Shown here: positions 6,391 to 64,000 of the stretch, in pieces | Layout of the letters: each line of letters starts with the position of its first letter | Position numbering within the stretch: position 1 is the stretch's first letter | Assembly: GCA_963727715.1 (NCBI GenBank) | Contig: CAVSGX010000005.1 | Coordinates: forward strand, 50,672-114,671 | Reading direction: 5' to 3' | DNA length: 64,000 nucleotides | DNA from: an uncultured bacterium | GTDB lineage: Bacteria > Patescibacteriota > Minisyncoccia > Phycocordibacterales > DATDWN01 | Translations under genes and position numbers: made by a program | The notes under the pieces: generated by a model | What the model saw: the letters and a program-made list of their open reading frames with translations, nothing else | Told to the model about the DNA's origin: nothing | Databases searched by the model: none

Positions 6391-8133
6391 ATGTTTTCCG
6401 AGAAAATCAAAAAATGGGTAATGGAAACTCTTGACGCGAATGAAGCTGATTTTGTCGTGGAATATCCGGCAGAAATGGCTTTTGGTGACTATTCAACAAA
6501 TGTGGCCATGGTCTTGGCTAAAACTGAAAAGAAAAATCCAAAAGAACTGGCTGAAAAATTCGCGACAAAATTAAATGATAAAAAAATTCCCGAAGTGGGA
6601 GCAATAACCGTGGCAGGACCTGGGTTTATAAACTTCTTTCTAAAGCCAGAAGTTTTTGCCAGCGTGGTGGAGGAAGCAATCAAAAATGGCTCAAATGTTG
6701 GTCATAATAAAAATCTGAAAGGCCAAAAAATTTTGGTGGAGTACACCGACCCGAACCCGTTCAAGGAATTTCATATTGGGCATCTTATGAGCAACGCCAT
6801 TGGCGAATCAATTTCGCGAATAATTTCTGCCGAAGGCGCGGAGGTCAAGCGAGCCTGTTATCAGGGCGATGTTGGTCTTCATGTGGCCAAAGCGGTTTGG
6901 GCCATGAAAAATTCAACACCTGATTTAAAATCGCAAGAATATTTTCCCAGAGAATCTGATCCCATAAATAAGAAAATTGAATTTTTAGGTCAGGCATATA
7001 CCACCGGCGCGTTGGCTTATGAAAATCAACCTGAATCAAAGGAAAATATAAATGAAATAAACAAAAAAATTTATGACCAAACTGATTCCGAAATAAATGA
7101 TTTATATAAAAAGGGCAGGAAATGGAGTCTTGATTATTTTGAAACAATGTATTTTCTGTTAGGGATGAAGAAACAAAACGATGGAAAAGCTTTCAATTTT
7201 TATTTTTTTGAATCCGAAACTGGAAAATTTGGAAAAGAAATCGTAGAAAAAAATGTCGGCAAAATTTTTGAGAAAAGTGATGGCGCCATTATTTTTCACG
7301 GAGAAAAATATGATGAAAGTTTGCATACAAGAGTTTTTATAAACAAAGATGGTCTACCGACATATGAAGCCAAAGAACTCGGGCTTTCAAAAATAAAATA
7401 TGGTAAATATTCTTATGATCTATCAATTATCATAACCGGTAATGAAATAAACGACTATTTCAAAGTTTTACTGAAAGCCATGTCTCTCATTTTTCCTGAT
7501 TTGGCTGTGAAAACCAAACATATTTCTCACGGAATGCTTCGGTTGCCTTCCGGGAAAATGTCCTCGCGAACAGGTGATGTCATTACAACCTTGTCGCTTA
7601 TTGATGAAATAAAAAATCTGATTTTGCAGAAAATGTCGGAGCGAAAAATGTCAGCCGAGCAAAAAGAAAAAGTGGCTGAAGAGGTGGCCACCGGCGCGCT
7701 GAAGTTTTCCATTTTGAAACAATCAGCTGGCAAGGATATTATTTTTGATTTTGAAAAATCAGTTTCTTTTGAAGGTGACTCCGGACCGTACTTGCAGTAC
7801 GCGACAGTGCGTGCCAATTCCATTTTGAAAAAATCCGGAAAAATTTCGCCAAACACTAAAATGCCGGCTGATTGGCAGACGACGAATTTGGAAAAAATGT
7901 TTGAAAGATTTGAAAGTGTCGTCGCTCGGGCCGGCGCGGAATACGCTCCGCATTATATTGTCACATATCTGGTGGAGCTTGCTTCCGAATTCAACTCTTT
8001 TTACGCCAAACACAAAATAATAGACAAAACCGACCCGACTTCGCCTTACAAACTGGCGCTAACTCAAAGTTTCGCAAATATAATGACTTCTGGCCTTGAC
8101 CTGCTCGGCATTGCCGTGCCAGAGGAGATGTAG
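6391..8133 (+). CDS. argS: Arginine--tRNA ligase
   Basis: HIGH motif (HIGHLMS), KMSSRTGD (KMSKS-like), and a C-terminal DALR-type domain. Confidence 0.9.
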   Translation: MFSEKIKKWVMETLDANEADFVVEYPAEMAFGDYSTNVAMVLAKTEKKNPKELAEKFATKLNDKKIPEVGAITVAGPGFINFFLKPEVFASVVEEAIKNGSNVGHNKNLKGQKILVEYTDPNPFKEFHIGHLMSNAIGESISRIISAEGAEVKRACYQGDVGLHVAKAVWAMKNSTPDLKSQEYFPRESDPINKKIEFLGQAYTTGALAYENQPESKENINEINKKIYDQTDSEINDLYKKGRKWSLDYFETMYFLLGMKKQNDGKAFNFYFFESETGKFGKEIVEKNVGKIFEKSDGAIIFHGEKYDESLHTRVFINKDGLPTYEAKELGLSKIKYGKYSYDLSIIITGNEINDYFKVLLKAMSLIFPDLAVKTKHISHGMLRLPSGKMSSRTGDVITTLSLIDEIKNLILQKMSERKMSAEQKEKVAEEVATGALKFSILKQSAGKDIIFDFEKSVSFEGDSGPYLQYATVRANSILKKSGKISPNTKMPADWQTTNLEKMFERFESVVARAGAEYAPHYIVTYLVELASEFNSFYAKHKIIDKTDPTSPYKLALTQSFANIMTSGLDLLGIAVPEEM

Positions 8134-57228: not shown

Positions 57229-57903
57229 ATGGGACAAATCACAGCTGACCAATCCCAACAGATTATGGCGCTTCTTTCCACGAATGTGGACTGGAGCAAA
57301 ATCGACTTCGAAGCGCTGGACTTGCAAAACTCGGTTGTGCTCAAAGCCACCGAGGCTGGTCAACAGTTCGAAGCCTTCCTGAAAAATCGTTGCCGACTAA
57401 TCGTCGGCGAGCCGAAAGTCATCACCATAGACCGCACCGCACCATTCAACCCCGCCGAGTTCATCGGTGCCGGTTGGAAATTCTGGCTCGGTCCGGCGGA
57501 CGGCGATGGTCTCTCCGGAGAGCTTGAGCAAGACAGCCGCTCTCTCGCTCTGACCGAGGTGGACGTAACCAAGATTTTCTTGGAAGTTCATCTCAAAAAG
57601 AGCGAGACCAGTACGACCGGCGAAGAACGCCTCAAGCGTCTCATCGCAACCAACCGCGTTCGTCTCGATCTAGGAGTTTTCAAAACACTCTGGGACAACA
57701 AGGCGCTCATACCGGCCAGCTGGAAGGAGAAGACGGGTGGCAACACCACCTACATATTCTTCGATGGTCAGATTCTTCGCAGTCCGGACGGCCGGCGGTA
57801 CACGCTGTACCTCTACTGGGACGGCGGCGAGTGGCGCTGGCTTGTGTACTGGCTCGACATCAGCCGGCACGCCAACGATCCGTCCGCGGTTCTCGCAAGT
57901 TAG
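57229..57903 (+). CDS. DGR target protein (C-type lectin-fold-like variable protein). The gene is about 57% GC in a roughly 38% GC genome.
   Basis: The C-terminal 41 codons form the VR, and the gene ends four codons after the VR. Confidence 0.8.
   Translation: MGQITADQSQQIMALLSTNVDWSKIDFEALDLQNSVVLKATEAGQQFEAFLKNRCRLIVGEPKVITIDRTAPFNPAEFIGAGWKFWLGPADGDGLSGELEQDSRSLALTEVDVTKIFLEVHLKKSETSTTGEERLKRLIATNRVRLDLGVFKTLWDNKALIPASWKEKTGGNTTYIFFDGQILRSPDGRRYTLYLYWDGGEWRWLVYWLDISRHANDPSAVLAS
57775..57897 (+). repeat. DGR variable repeat (VR), 123 bp
   Basis: Matches the TR at 58317-58439 except at 15 positions. Every one is an A in the TR and a non-A in the VR. Confidence 0.85.
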
Positions 57904-58316: not shown

Positions 58317-58439
58317 CTTCGCAGTCCGAACGGCAAGCGGTACACGCTGTACCTCTACTGGAACGACGGCAAGTGGAACTGGAATGTGAACTGGCTCGAC
58401 AACAACCGGAACGCCAACAATCCGTCCGCGGTTCTCGCA
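58317..58439 (+). repeat. DGR template repeat (TR), rich in AAC/AAT codons
   Basis: See the VR entry. Encodes NGKRYTLYLYWNDGKWNWNVNWLDNNRNANNPSAV in the VR frame. Confidence 0.85.
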
Positions 58440-58446
58440 GCTCTCT

Positions 58447-58845
58447 TCATTTCTCTCCGGACTTTTTGTCCGGAGAGTTTTGTTTTGCCAACTGTGTCAT
58501 TATTTGTCCTTGCCATCCACCAAGCATCTTGCCTATGTCATCAATCTTGAGCGACAGAGCGATATACTTTTTGTCGTCAATGGATTTTGTCTCCCACAAA
58601 ACCATCAGCAATATTCGCAAAGTGTCCACTTTTCGCACAGCCAAACGAACATACGGTTGTTTTTCAGCGGGGGAGAGAAAACTGGCTATGGAAATTGCTT
58701 CAATACTTTCCACAAATAAATTGTCAATACGCAAACCCAGCGAATGCCTGTGCAGTTTCGGCAAAATTTGGTAAAAGGAGTACCATAGCAGATACACTTC
58801 TTTCAATTTTTGTAACAATGGTAATATGCGGGGGGGGGGCAACAT
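58447..58845 (-). CDS. avd: DGR accessory variability determinant (Avd, four-helix-bundle family). It lies antisense to the TR-RT strand and has a G10/C10 tract at codons 3-5.
   Basis: The pattern matches the four-helix-bundle family (YQILPKLHRHSLGLRIDNLFVESIEAISIA ... IDDIGKMLGGW). The homopolymer spans 58830-58839. Confidence 0.7.
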   Translation of the reverse strand: MLPPPRILPLLQKLKEVYLLWYSFYQILPKLHRHSLGLRIDNLFVESIEAISIASFLSPAEKQPYVRLAVRKVDTLRILLMVLWETKSIDDKKYIALSLKIDDIGKMLGGWQGQIMTQLAKQNSPDKKSGEK

Positions 58846-58890
58846 TGGTAGTCATTTTTGTGTTGTAATTATAATAATTTTTACTATATC

Positions 58891-59871
58891 ATGAATCAAC
58901 CAACATTTGAAGAAATTATTTCTCTGGAAAATTTACTTCTGGCGTGGAAGGAATTTATTGTCGGTAAAAAATCCAGAAAAGATGTGCAGGAGTTTGAGCA
59001 GTGTTTAATGAAAAATATTATTTCACTTCATACGGATTTGAAAAACAAAACCTATATTCACGGCGGTTACTATGCTTTCAATATTTCCGACCCGAAACCG
59101 CGCGATATTCACAAAGCCAGTGTTCGGGATAGACTGCTTCATCACGCCCTGTATAGAATACTTTATCCATTTTTTGACAAAAAGTTTATCGCCGATTCTT
59201 ATTCATGCAGATTGGACAAAGGAACATATAAAGCGCTTGAGACATTCCAAAAGTTTTTATACAAGGTTTCAAAAAATCAGACAAAAACCGTTTGGATACT
59301 AAAATGCGATGTCAGAAAATTTTTCGCGTCAATCGACCAAAAAATTTTAATAGAAATATTGGCTAAATATATTTCTGACAAAAATATCGTCTGGCTGTTG
59401 TCCAAAATTATCCAAAGTTTTCACTCAACCCAAAAAGATGTCGGTTTGCCACTCGGTAACCTAACCTCGCAGTTATTGGTCAATATTCATATGAATGAGT
59501 TTGACCAGTTTATGAAGCACAGAATAAAGGCAAAATATTATATCCGCTATGCCGATGATTTTGTCATATTTTCAACCGACAAAATCGAACTTAAAAATAT
59601 TTTATTCCGAATCAATAGTTTTTTACTGACTAGATTAAAACTTACACTTCATCCCGACAAAGTTTTTATCAAGACCATTGGCTCTGGCATGGATTTTCTC
59701 GGATGGGTTAATTTTCCAGATCACAGAGTTTTGCGTACTGTCACTAAAAAAAGGATGTTCAGAAATATAAAATTAAAAGACGGCAAAAGAGAAACGGTTC
59801 AATCATATTTTGGATTGCTTGGCCACGGAAATGGTAAAAAACTTACAAATGAGGTCAACCAACTTTTATAA
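58891..59871 (+). CDS. DGR reverse transcriptase
   Basis: RT motifs ADSYSCRLDKG, LKCDVRKFFASID, LPLGNLTSQLLVNIHM (the DGR-specific I/LGxxxSQ motif) and IRYADDFVIFS (YxDD). Confidence 0.85.
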   Translation: MNQPTFEEIISLENLLLAWKEFIVGKKSRKDVQEFEQCLMKNIISLHTDLKNKTYIHGGYYAFNISDPKPRDIHKASVRDRLLHHALYRILYPFFDKKFIADSYSCRLDKGTYKALETFQKFLYKVSKNQTKTVWILKCDVRKFFASIDQKILIEILAKYISDKNIVWLLSKIIQSFHSTQKDVGLPLGNLTSQLLVNIHMNEFDQFMKHRIKAKYYIRYADDFVIFSTDKIELKNILFRINSFLLTRLKLTLHPDKVFIKTIGSGMDFLGWVNFPDHRVLRTVTKKRMFRNIKLKDGKRETVQSYFGLLGHGNGKKLTNEVNQLL

Positions 59872-59990
59872 ATTTTCGACTTTTTCTCTTAAATTTGCTA
59901 TAAATATGTAACCATCGTGTATAATGTTATCTTTTATTCTAATTCCAACGTCATACACCAGGCCGCGCAAAATATGATACAATACAAAAT

Positions 59991-60329
59991 ATGAAAGGGG
60001 GAGAAAAATTTTCTGATGATATTTTAGAGACAGAAGGAGGAATGTTTCAAATGGAAATAAACGATACTATCGGTGAAGCTGAAGGGCTGGTTGATATATC
60101 AAGGGTAAGTGATGAGACAAAAGAAAAATGCAAACATATTCTACAAGAATTTTTAAGGCGTGTAGAATTAGAAAAGGATAAAATTGATATTTATGATTTA
60201 TGCAGAACAGTTATATCAGATTTGCTTATTTTGTTAGATGGGAAAGATGATGAACATAAACAACTATTTGAGAGTTTAAGAGATGTTATATTGAAGGCGC
60301 GAGATTCTGTTAAAGGATGGAAAAGTTAA
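59991..60329 (+). CDS. Hypothetical protein
   Basis: ORF only. Confidence 0.3.
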   Translation: MKGGEKFSDDILETEGGMFQMEINDTIGEAEGLVDISRVSDETKEKCKHILQEFLRRVELEKDKIDIYDLCRTVISDLLILLDGKDDEHKQLFESLRDVILKARDSVKGWKS

Positions 60330-60350
60330 TTTCAGTCCGTAAAACAAATC

Positions 60351-60731
60351 CTACACAAATCCTTTGTAAAGCAGAACCAGACCTAAAATAAGGACAATCA
60401 ATCCGGCCAAGATAAAAACGCTATCCTTGTTGGCTTTTCTGTAAAAAGGAGAAGCCAAATCCGGAAGAACCAGAAGAAAAACTCCTTTTATCAAAGCCAA
60501 CCAACCCAGGATGGCGATAAGCAAATGCAGACGAGAATCCCAGACGTTGCTCAGCGCGATAATGACAGCGCCCATAACTAAAGCCATAAATCCTCCCATC
60601 CACATAAAACTTTTGCTCTGAATTAATTCCTCCATTACCAAAACGGTATTTTTCCTGTTAAAAAACATTGATAAACCCAAAACAAAAAACGTAATCCCTA
60701 ACACCTGCGCAAGAACCAGAGTAATATTCAT
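60351..60731 (-). CDS. Hypothetical 4-TM membrane protein
   Basis: Hydrophobic helices. Confidence 0.35.
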   Translation of the reverse strand: MNITLVLAQVLGITFFVLGLSMFFNRKNTVLVMEELIQSKSFMWMGGFMALVMGAVIIALSNVWDSRLHLLIAILGWLALIKGVFLLVLPDLASPFYRKANKDSVFILAGLIVLILGLVLLYKGFV

Positions 60732-60847
60732 ATATTTGTAAATTAGGATTAATAATCTAAAAACGACCCCACTAATATTATAACTCTATTAAAATATAAT
60801 TACCGAATTTATAGTCTAATGCAGGTGATTTTGATACAATCTAATGG

Positions 60848-61474
60848 ATGAAAAAATTTGATTATTCAGAATCGGAAACAAAACTTTTTCGCCGGCTGAA
60901 TTCGCCAAAAAAAATTCAGGATTATATAAACTCGCTCCGGTTTAATTTTGAGGAAGATGGTGACAGTTGTATATCACCGAGAGAAGTGATCAGAAACCAA
61001 AAAGCCAATTGCATCGAAGGGGCGATTTTGGCCGCCGCCATTTTGGAATTTCACGGTGGGAAGCCTCTGGTCATGGATATGCGTTCAACCAGAAAACCGT
61101 ATGATGACGACCATGTCGTGGCGGTGTTCAAACAATTTGGCATGCTCGGAGCGATTTCCAAAACAAATCACGGCGTCTTGCGTTATCGCGAGCCGGTTTA
61201 CAAAACCGTCCGCGAGCTGGCCTTGTCGTATTTCCACGAATATTTTTTAAACAACGGGCAGAAAACTTTGCGCGAATATTCCGAACTTTTTGATTTGAAT
61301 TATTTTGATAAACTGAACTGGCGGACAACACCTGACTCTCTTTTAGAAATTTCTTTTTACTTGGATGAAATAAAACATTACAAAATTTTGTCGCCCGCTC
61401 AAGTTAGGAATCTGCGCAAAGCTGACAAAGTGGAAATAGAAGCCGGAAAAGTGGTGGAATATAAGAGAAAATAA
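60848..61474 (+). CDS. Transglutaminase-like / papain-like superfamily protein (putative Cys-His-Asp triad)
   Basis: KANCIEGAILAAAILEFHGGKPLVMD is a Cys-nucleophile context. Confidence 0.35.
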   Translation: MKKFDYSESETKLFRRLNSPKKIQDYINSLRFNFEEDGDSCISPREVIRNQKANCIEGAILAAAILEFHGGKPLVMDMRSTRKPYDDDHVVAVFKQFGMLGAISKTNHGVLRYREPVYKTVRELALSYFHEYFLNNGQKTLREYSELFDLNYFDKLNWRTTPDSLLEISFYLDEIKHYKILSPAQVRNLRKADKVEIEAGKVVEYKRK

Positions 61475-61552
61475 TTAAACCAACAGACGTATTTTCTAAA
61501 TCAAAAGAAAAAACCAACCTCATGGTTGGCTGAAATCTCTTGTTGACTATTT

Positions 61553-62170
61553 TTATTCCGCGACCATGGCCATTCTTTGAACCACCACATCAAGTGATCC
61601 AAAAGAAGTATTTCTGCTGAGAAAACTTAAAGCCCTTTCCATTTTTATAGATTCAGTTGGTTCTCCCGCTGAATCTTTTTTTGATTGAAGAGCATCTTTC
61701 AGTTCTTCTTTGGCTAAATATAGACTGGGCAAGTACCAAAACTCCCAGAAGTGGCCATCGCTGTCTCGGCGAGAACGCATGCAAATAAATCCCCAGCGTT
61801 CTAACTTTTCCGTTTCGCACCGATAATTTTCTGGTGTGTAGTCGTAACCACAAACCGATGAAATTAAAATGGATGGAGAATGATGATCCAGTGATTCATC
61901 CGGGTCAAGAAGAAACTGCCGCATTTCACTAGTGCCTTCCCGTCTGGCTCTCCAGAAAGGAAGCATCTCCTCATCTTCAGTTGGCCCAGGTAATGGTTTG
62001 TAAGTAGGTTGGGCAACAATTCTACCTTCTTTGACCGTAACCCACTGATGACCATTAACAGCTCCTTCAATTAATTCAGTTTCTCCATCAACCAAACCAT
62101 GAATGTTAATATCTTTACTACCACAAGAGCCAATCCTCACTCTTTCACCAATATCTTCGGTGTCTTCCAC
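61553..62170 (-). CDS. Hypothetical protein
   Basis: ORF only. Confidence 0.3.
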   Translation of the reverse strand: MEDTEDIGERVRIGSCGSKDINIHGLVDGETELIEGAVNGHQWVTVKEGRIVAQPTYKPLPGPTEDEEMLPFWRARREGTSEMRQFLLDPDESLDHHSPSILISSVCGYDYTPENYRCETEKLERWGFICMRSRRDSDGHFWEFWYLPSLYLAKEELKDALQSKKDSAGEPTESIKMERALSFLSRNTSFGSLDVVVQRMAMVAE

Positions 62171-62301
62171 AAGTTCACCTCCAAAGACTAGACTACTCTC
62201 TAACTAAAAAATGTCAAGAATTTGCTTGTTTTACGTATGGTTTTTTGCTATAATTAGCCTTGCATAACAACCCTGCCAAACACGGTCGGGACGGTAAAAA
62301 A

Positions 62302-64000
<1,699 letters not shown>

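Follow-up and report, generated by a model that had tools for sequence, protein, structure and literature searches.

The locus analysed here raises a simple question: why does the accessory gene avd of a DGR, in an uncultured member of the Patescibacteria, carry ten identical bases in its first codons? The window, by which we mean the whole 64,000-nt stretch of DNA under study, has ten consecutive G on its plus strand at 58830-58839. Read on the minus strand, the tract lies in ATG TTG CCC CCC CCC CGC ATA TTA CCA, codons 1-9 of a 132-aa ORF (58447-58845), and the RT start codon at 58891 is found 51 nt downstream of the last G. These positions bear out the first-pass annotation, which had placed the run at codons 3-5 of minus-strand avd (Pro-Pro-Pro), about 50 nt upstream of the RT start, and had proposed that it might act as a slipped-strand switch. 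On the evidence assembled below, we consider it likely that slipped-strand mispairing makes Avd translation phase-variable and thereby gates DGR mutagenesis. The features of the locus are collected in Table 1.

Table 1. Features of the DGR locus and of the avd 5' end, in window coordinates
Feature	Position	Strand	Remarks
DGR target gene, 224 aa	57229..57903	+	VR at its C-terminus
Variable repeat (VR)	57775-57897		within target gene
Template repeat (TR)	58317..58439	+	
GC-rich hairpin plus TTTTGTTTTG	58453..58487	+	directly 3' of TR, terminator-like, within avd 3' end (opposite strand)
avd coding sequence as read at C10	58447..58845	-	predicted four-helix bundle
Simple-sequence repeat, C10 in avd sense, G10 on +	58830..58839	(-)	proposed slippage switch
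Proximal avd ATG, directly 5' of tract	58843..58845	-	in frame at C10, C7, C13 (132 aa, MLPPPRILP...)
Upstream avd ATG (ATGACT...)	58853..58855	-	one nt out of frame at C10; in frame at C9/C12
AT-rich spacer between avd and RT	58856..58890	(.)	overlapping TATAAT: 58868-58873 minus, 58870-58875 plus
DGR reverse transcriptase (RT), 326 aa	58891..59871	+	RVT_1 E 1.6e-21

The element around the tract is a complete DGR by every feature that could be tested. Its membership is met by a DGR-type RT, TR/VR differences confined to adenines and an Avd four-helix bundle. The RT translation contains LGNLTSQ, a form of the I/LGxxxSQ motif typical of DGR RTs, and TR and VR make up a 123-nt repeat with 15 mismatches, which affect 15 of the 32 TR adenines and no other TR base and which, in the target gene, fall only in the first or second position of a codon. 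The avd ORF matched the Pfam bAvd-like family with an E value of 1.2e-9 and 39.1 bits (cut-off 40). Because PDB sequence searches with the Avd protein and with a 26-sequence profile gave no match, a fold search was required to confirm it as Avd: the AlphaFold model (pLDDT 84.8; helices 7-25, 30-54, 59-85 and 91-122) matched the Bordetella phage Avd structures 4dwl and 8ub7 in Foldseek (TM 0.74/0.88). The DGR is thus intact and was active in the past; the VR divergence speaks for past activity only, and ongoing retrohoming was not shown.

A hairpin plus TTTTGTTT directly follows the TR in 113 of 119 related loci, with stem sequences that vary by locus. The TR RNA probably ends before avd, and the RT would therefore need a promoter of its own near the tract. 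A search of Rfam near the locus returned two tRNAs and nothing else. The conserved C-terminal tail of Avd, KQNSPxKxGEK, is the antisense translation of this terminator-like element, so its conservation may serve the RNA and not the protein. Contigs carrying the element often start or stop inside the TR or VR (the start of L081, at window position 58359, and the ends of L165-L167 and L172-L174), a pattern that heterogeneity of the VR within the population would produce.

Within the 64-kb window, the tract stands alone. It is the only G/C homopolymer of at least 7 (the next longest are four runs of 6), runs of at least 10 would be expected 0.015 times from base composition, and no other simple-sequence array was found across the window. 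Codon usage has no explanatory power for the run: since CCC is the least used Pro codon in this genome (11%), the probability of three consecutive CCC codons is 0.001, and PPP occurs nowhere else in 11,495 codons. The length of ten rests on two assemblies from a single run, without read-level data. The Logan assembly of run ERR11594402, which covers 58359-62667 and is 100% identical to the window over 58359-62405, likewise reads G10, and short-read assemblies may miscall homopolymer lengths by one.

Other parts of the window were also considered for sequence errors. Frameshifts from homopolymer errors were suspected elsewhere and ruled out, as the overlapping ORF pairs (response regulator with T2SSE-family secretion ATPase, DNA ligase, TspO) are separate genes. 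At the far end, gyrB (62260-64000) shows at least seven frame changes in its final ~1 kb, with GC up to 0.48. Where the Logan contig, which stops at 62667, departs from the window, it does so in gyrB alone: its 17 mismatches fall within 62406-62655 and are spaced like synonymous sites. Rather than a real pseudogene, this seems to be a conserved gene whose assembly, drawn from mixed strains, is chimeric or of low quality.

Relatives of the element carry a repeat at the same site. A search with the RT against one genome per species and JGI metagenomes yielded 160 Patescibacteria loci, with RTs 62-73% identical to that of the window; no RT more than 73% identical was found in the genome, metagenome and viral collections scanned, and the window's own RT was found in one run only. 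Wherever upstream sequence is available, in 141 loci, avd is divergent from the RT. Poly-C of 7-13 (mode 10) occupies the position of the window's tract in 114 of 130 unique loci, and 13 others have (CA)n, (GA)n, (CT)n, (AACC)n, (GCCA)n or (ACGA)n at the same site, spanning up to 42 nt. Repeat units are therefore of 1, 2 or 4 nt in 127 of the 130 loci, and a unit of 3 occurs in none. The three loci without an intact repeat are L025, where the tract is interrupted, and L059 and L144, which have no repeat. Poly-C lies on the avd-sense strand in 114 of 114 cases; poly-G was never seen there.

Outside a 116-nt zone at the avd 5' end, 787 kb of these loci contain six G/C runs of at least 7 and none of at least 9. 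The avd 5' zones, 15 kb in all, contain 114 runs of at least 7, a roughly 1000-fold enrichment over the flanks. The tract is kept while Avd diverges to ~30% identity, and its unit is interchangeable; we therefore infer that conservation applies to the presence of a repeat prone to slippage, whatever its sequence. In the 787 kb of flanks, G/C runs of 8 occur at four places only (L008:4692, L032:1788, L047:1387 and L085:2078); they sit in or beside unrelated genes, that of L047 just upstream of an ORF start.

These comparisons bear on the concern, already voiced in the first-pass annotation, that the tract is a sequencing artefact. Homopolymers of 10 are error-prone in sequencing, and the far end of the window (gyrB, 62400-64000) has clear assembly problems. 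However, the tract is present in the second assembly and in more than 100 independent assemblies from many projects, so an artefact cannot explain its existence, and its exact length alone still depends on the two assemblies of one run. Elsewhere in the window, long genes are intact although 14 A/T runs of 8 are present. A neutral mutational hotspot would share with an artefact the difficulty of accounting for such enrichment at a single site and for persistence through the divergence of Avd. That the tract has no function, whether as a sequencing or assembly artefact or as a hotspot, is in our view hardly credible.

Selection for an N-terminal polyproline in Avd, with the homopolymer as a by-product, is another reading to which we give almost no credence. 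Many called Avd proteins do read (T/S)PPP(R/Q)LLP at this point. However, such selection would not call for the rarest Pro codon, and mixed Pro codons occur at the site in L025 only. The majority of tract lengths are not divisible by 3, out-of-frame copies predominate, and the substitute repeats encode unrelated peptides (ERER, TNQP, SQPA, HTHT). In the AlphaFold model, moreover, the PPP of the window's Avd precedes helix 1 and lies outside the folded bundle.

The repeat is absent from three viral contigs of IMG/VR (L186, L187 and L188), which have the divergent avd-RT layout and RTs 48-60% identical. Since the repeat is missing from these virus-classified elements, it may be specific to the cellular Patescibacteria clade. 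The avd gene starts at a plain, repeat-free ATG in L186, the viral contig inspected, and in L059/L118. Because these repeat-free relatives start avd in this way, we regard the repeat as an add-on and not as a basic expression signal.

Several lines of evidence indicate that the repeat is translated. Conservation of the Avd protein begins right after the tract, with R-[LI]-L-P, in which L8 and P9 are nearly invariant, and the segment before the tract is variable in length and sequence. No conserved start codon was found downstream of the tract, where the codons for Leu, Ile or Val are TTG, TTA, ATT, CTC, GTT or CTT. A conserved ATG lies upstream, 25-46 nt (mostly 31-44) before the repeat, and the frame that it leads reaches the repeat without a stop in 72 of 72 loci, compared with 3 and 6 of 72 for the other two frames; we therefore conclude that ribosomes starting there would read into the repeat. 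Four (GA)n loci with differing repeat numbers are all in frame, reading MMERER...KTQPIRLIPVVLKLK (MMERER...KTQPIRLIP).

The conserved ATG also coincides with a constrained RT codon. The 5' ends of avd and RT overlap on opposite strands in most relatives, and a conserved RT His codon (F-x-H-T-Y...IIS, at about RT codons 8-12) supplies the upstream ATG on its complementary strand. This codon is CAT in 80 of 82 loci, compared with 61% CAT among the other His codons of the same genes. Taken with the frame from the antisense ATG, open in every locus, this points to one codon constrained on both strands.

In the window, two ATGs compete for the role of avd start. A second ATG, at 58855, lies 10 nt upstream of the proximal one at 58845, in a different frame. 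From ATG 58855, a tract of C9 or C12 gives an in-frame product of 135-136 aa (MTTNVAPPRILP...), and C10 gives a 43-aa out-of-frame peptide. At C8 or C11, both ATGs are out of frame and yield only peptides of 17 and 40 aa. The first-pass annotation held that a change of one G would frameshift avd. This stands for a gain to G11, which, like G8, would switch the gene off. It does not stand for the loss of one G, which would bring ATG 58855 into frame (135 aa). ATG 58855 matches the start used in the closest sub-group (ATGACT or ATGACC in L002, L015, L018, L050 and the P0008 element), and a layout of two starts, AATGGTAC(n), is also found in the P0071/P0195 element.

Which ATG is used can only be inferred. 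Shine-Dalgarno-like sites precede 2 of 32 starts (30 long genes and both avd ATGs, within 25 nt upstream), and because the genome is nearly without such sites, the avd start codon in use remains uncertain. TATAAT-like boxes stand 6-9 nt before many ATGs of the window, for example at 6391, 24766, 33035, 54721, 56167 and 60848, a pattern that suggests that, as a rule, mRNAs of this organism have no leader or a very short one. On the avd strand, ATG 58855 is preceded by a TATAAT at a distance of 12 nt and may therefore be the main start; by the same inference, the C10 state may then be low or off.

Tract length differs between copies of the same element. For the P0019 element, carried by the JGI sample series 3300008001-3300008094 and 3300025034-3300025842, nine contigs read C9 and four read C10; they come from different samples and have identical 160-nt flanks. 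The conserved ATG of this element is in frame at C9 and out of frame at C10. In the P0071/P0195 element, six contigs have C10 and five have C11, both in frame via two ATGs in different frames (MLIPMIKLNTLHTTNGTPPP... and MVPPPP...). L030 and L033 have C11 and C8, respectively, and otherwise differ by one substitution in 2042 bp. Near-identical pairs otherwise mostly share one tract length, so consensus lengths are fairly stable. No length polymorphism was found in the P0008 element, the closest relative by upstream DNA (C10 in 7 of 7 assemblies). Unequal protein lengths in the P0008 cluster were considered as tract variation and rejected, as they came from gene calling. The length differences are observed in relatives; that slippage in this organism occurs at a useful rate is inferred.

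Tract state was compared with VR change in the P0019 element: the consensus VR is identical in three C9 and three C10 contigs, the remaining contigs ending at or near the VR, and numbers are small. Contigs end at or near the VR in 5 of 8 C9 and 1 of 4 C10 cases, too few to test. Avd versions whose differences are confined to the N-terminus share protein clusters at 90% identity (e.g., 144 versus 119 aa, and 138 versus 124 aa), and within one such cluster Avd lengths range from 85 to 150 aa, with gene callers picking differing starts around the tract. Because of the tract, many avd genes of this clade are called truncated or with the wrong start, and the lengths given for these proteins in public annotation should not be trusted.

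All three frame states are represented among relatives. Of 125 loci, 34 have at least one open upstream ATG in frame, compared with ~50 expected under random length. For the nearest ATG, 29 of 123 loci are in frame, 60 have one nt too many and 34 two too many; for the conserved, likely ancestral ATG, the numbers are 13, 40 and 24 of 77. Related loci are not independent, so these statistics are rough. The presence of all three states is consistent with variation in the DNA itself and speaks against a programmed frameshift of fixed offset. Off as the favoured state could account for the scarcity of in-frame copies and the excess of those one nt too long. It is also possible that populations in the on state assemble poorly owing to their heterogeneous VR, that the second, proximal ATG is the one used, or that +1 ribosomal slippage occurs at CCC-C. 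A default-off switch would fit the predominance of copies with one nt too many, although the same predominance could point to read-through by frameshifting.

This last possibility leads to a different account, in which the tract is a constant attenuator: a +1 shift on CCC-C at a polyproline stall, or slippage of RNA polymerase, would set a low dose of Avd, with no heritable switch. CCC-C is an established +1 slippery motif and PPP an established stalling motif. The account draws on these properties, on the predominance of the one-nt-too-many state at both the nearest and the conserved ATG (60 of 123 and 40 of 77), and on the upstream ATG being one nt out of frame both in the window and in its closest relative, where C10 is invariant. 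We nevertheless consider it distinctly unlikely. A fixed offset was not met, as all three occur at the conserved ATG (13, 40 and 24 of 77), and the di- and tetranucleotide repeats that substitute for poly-C cannot serve as CCC-C sites. The (GA)n clade stays in frame, the length differences exist in the DNA itself, and runs of 9-13 far exceed what a shift site needs. A contribution cannot be excluded, however, given the over-representation of the +1-nt offset.

A combination of switching and recoding is conceivable, although we hold it to be unlikely. Tract length would pick the long-leader start, the short-leader start or an out-of-frame state, +1 slippage on CCC-C during a polyproline stall would supply low-level Avd from the commonest state, one nt too many, and the tract would thereby act as a three-level dial that sets the hypermutation rate heritably across Patescibacteria. 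If true, this would be a case of one evolvability device tuning another.

A further question is whether the tract acts on the RT and not on avd. Under this account, tract length would set the geometry of the RT promoter, and the effect on avd would be secondary. The conserved terminator-like hairpin after the TR lends it some weight, since the RT probably needs a promoter near the tract. In addition, 19-26 of 112 poly-C loci have a TAnnnT hexamer directly after the G-run and, 7 nt further on, the start codon of the RT, a layout that resembles a leaderless promoter with the tract as spacer. However, this arrangement is limited to one sub-group. Another has an AAGGA-like site, with the RT ATG 20-25 nt after the tract, and among relatives there is no universal RT promoter layout around the tract, only sub-group patterns. 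Repeats of 31-42 nt are impossible as spacers of a sigma-70 promoter, and the relation of the tract to the avd codons is universal, whereas its relation to the RT start is not.

The window itself also speaks against an effect on the RT. Our reading of promoters rests on inspection of the sequence, a promoter scan and comparison with relatives. The two overlapping TATAAT boxes of the spacer are probably the avd and RT promoters, although this is inferred and not shown. The spacer is ~26 nt longer than in most relatives and AT-rich, a trait that the window shares with L002, L015, L018, L050 and the P0008 element. The extra segment carries a palindromic ATTATAAT, which gives one TATAAT box per strand. 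In the window and this small sub-group, the RT N-terminus is 4 aa shorter and the conserved His is absent. Right after the tract, the hexamer is CAACAT; the plus-strand box at 58870-58875 follows 30 nt beyond the end of the tract and is separated from the RT ATG by 15 nt. The tract is therefore upstream of the -35 position, which makes an effect of its length on the promoter unlikely here, and no repeat was met between the -35 and -10 of the window's best promoter candidates. The suggestion of the first-pass annotation that the tract might alter the RT promoter region accordingly lacks support in the window and describes no general feature of relatives. We regard a switch acting mainly through RT transcription as very unlikely.

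We therefore favour slipped-strand phase variation of avd itself, in which the tract would be a contingency locus in the 5' coding end of the gene. The criteria of a mutable repeat, a unit that is not a multiple of 3 and a position within the reading frame are met. In the proposed mechanism, C10/G10 would gain or lose one base by slipped-strand mispairing at replication. Ribosomes would initiate at an ATG 5' of the run and read through it, and the length of the run would decide whether they exit in the Avd frame. The window would then have three states: expression via ATG 58845 (C10, C7 or C13), expression via ATG 58855 (C9 or C12) and expression via neither (C8 or C11). Avd is needed by DGR reverse transcriptases for cDNA synthesis, as established for the Bordetella phage DGR, so such a switch would turn mutagenic retrohoming into the target gene on and off, in a heritable and reversible way, cell by cell. 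Of these steps, the rate of slippage, the ATG used, the reversibility of switching and the arrest of this particular DGR by loss of Avd are inferences. The slipped-strand switch first proposed from the window alone nonetheless gains strong support from the repeats in relatives, their enrichment at one site, the open frame leading into them and the differences in length between copies.

To our knowledge, the regulation of DGR mutagenesis is largely unknown. Retrohoming without control would keep erasing useful variants of the target protein. If our reading is true, a random, heritable and reversible Avd switch would let a lineage diversify the target in a small minority of cells while the others keep it fixed, a form of bet-hedging atop targeted hypermutation. 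Tract length offers a read-out that can be scored against VR diversity in existing metagenomes. The locus would moreover rank among the early examples of phase variation by repeats in these uncultured, host-dependent bacteria.

The searches of the literature set the limits of what can be called new. In the full-text literature, we found no paper that ties avd or DGRs to homopolymers, repeats or phase variation, although the main survey of DGRs in CPR (Paul et al. 2017) was not covered, and no report of phase variation in Patescibacteria was found in the literature searched. A DGR clade restricted to Patescibacteria has been described (Roux et al. 2021, PMC8144416) and probably corresponds to the present one.

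Compared with the DGR of BPP-1 (avd-TR-brt), the element shares the RT, the Avd four-helix bundle, an adenine-specific TR/VR pair and a C-terminal VR. The order in the window differs, with the target, the TR, a terminator, avd on the opposite strand and the divergent RT. The 5' ends of avd and RT here overlap or nearly touch, unlike those of BPP-1, and a hypermutable repeat in avd has not been described for BPP-1.

Among phase-variable systems, variation of a promoter spacer is known from Neisseria porA/opc (poly-G/C), H. influenzae hifA/hifB ((TA)n between divergent genes) and Bordetella fim (poly-C). The likeness to these promoter-spacer systems lies in a homopolymer between two divergent genes and extends to one sub-group of relatives, where the run abuts a -10-like box of the RT. 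In contrast to them, the run here lies within a coding frame and not between -35 and -10, and repeats reach 42 nt. Closer in design are H. influenzae lic1A/lic2A, with (CAAT)n, and the poly-G/C genes of Campylobacter, Neisseria and Helicobacter, in which a unit that is not of 3 nt sits in the first codons and its length sets the frame, as here. The G/C runs of 7-13 in this clade fall within the known mutable range of phase-variable tracts. Systems of translational phase variation can also have two ATGs in different frames and more than two expression states, as in the window; H. influenzae lic1A has two start codons in different frames. Unlike in those systems, the gene controlled is a hypermutation accessory protein and not a surface structure or restriction-modification enzyme, and the hosts are uncultured Patescibacteria in which switching has not been measured. 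Phasevarions (mod/hsdS) likewise use one repeat to switch a factor of wide effect and add a second layer of population heterogeneity; they alter the expression of many genes, whereas the switch proposed here would affect how fast a single target gene mutates. The novelty lies in the combination: a contingency repeat sits on an accessory gene that serves targeted hypermutation, and it is conserved across a Patescibacteria DGR clade.
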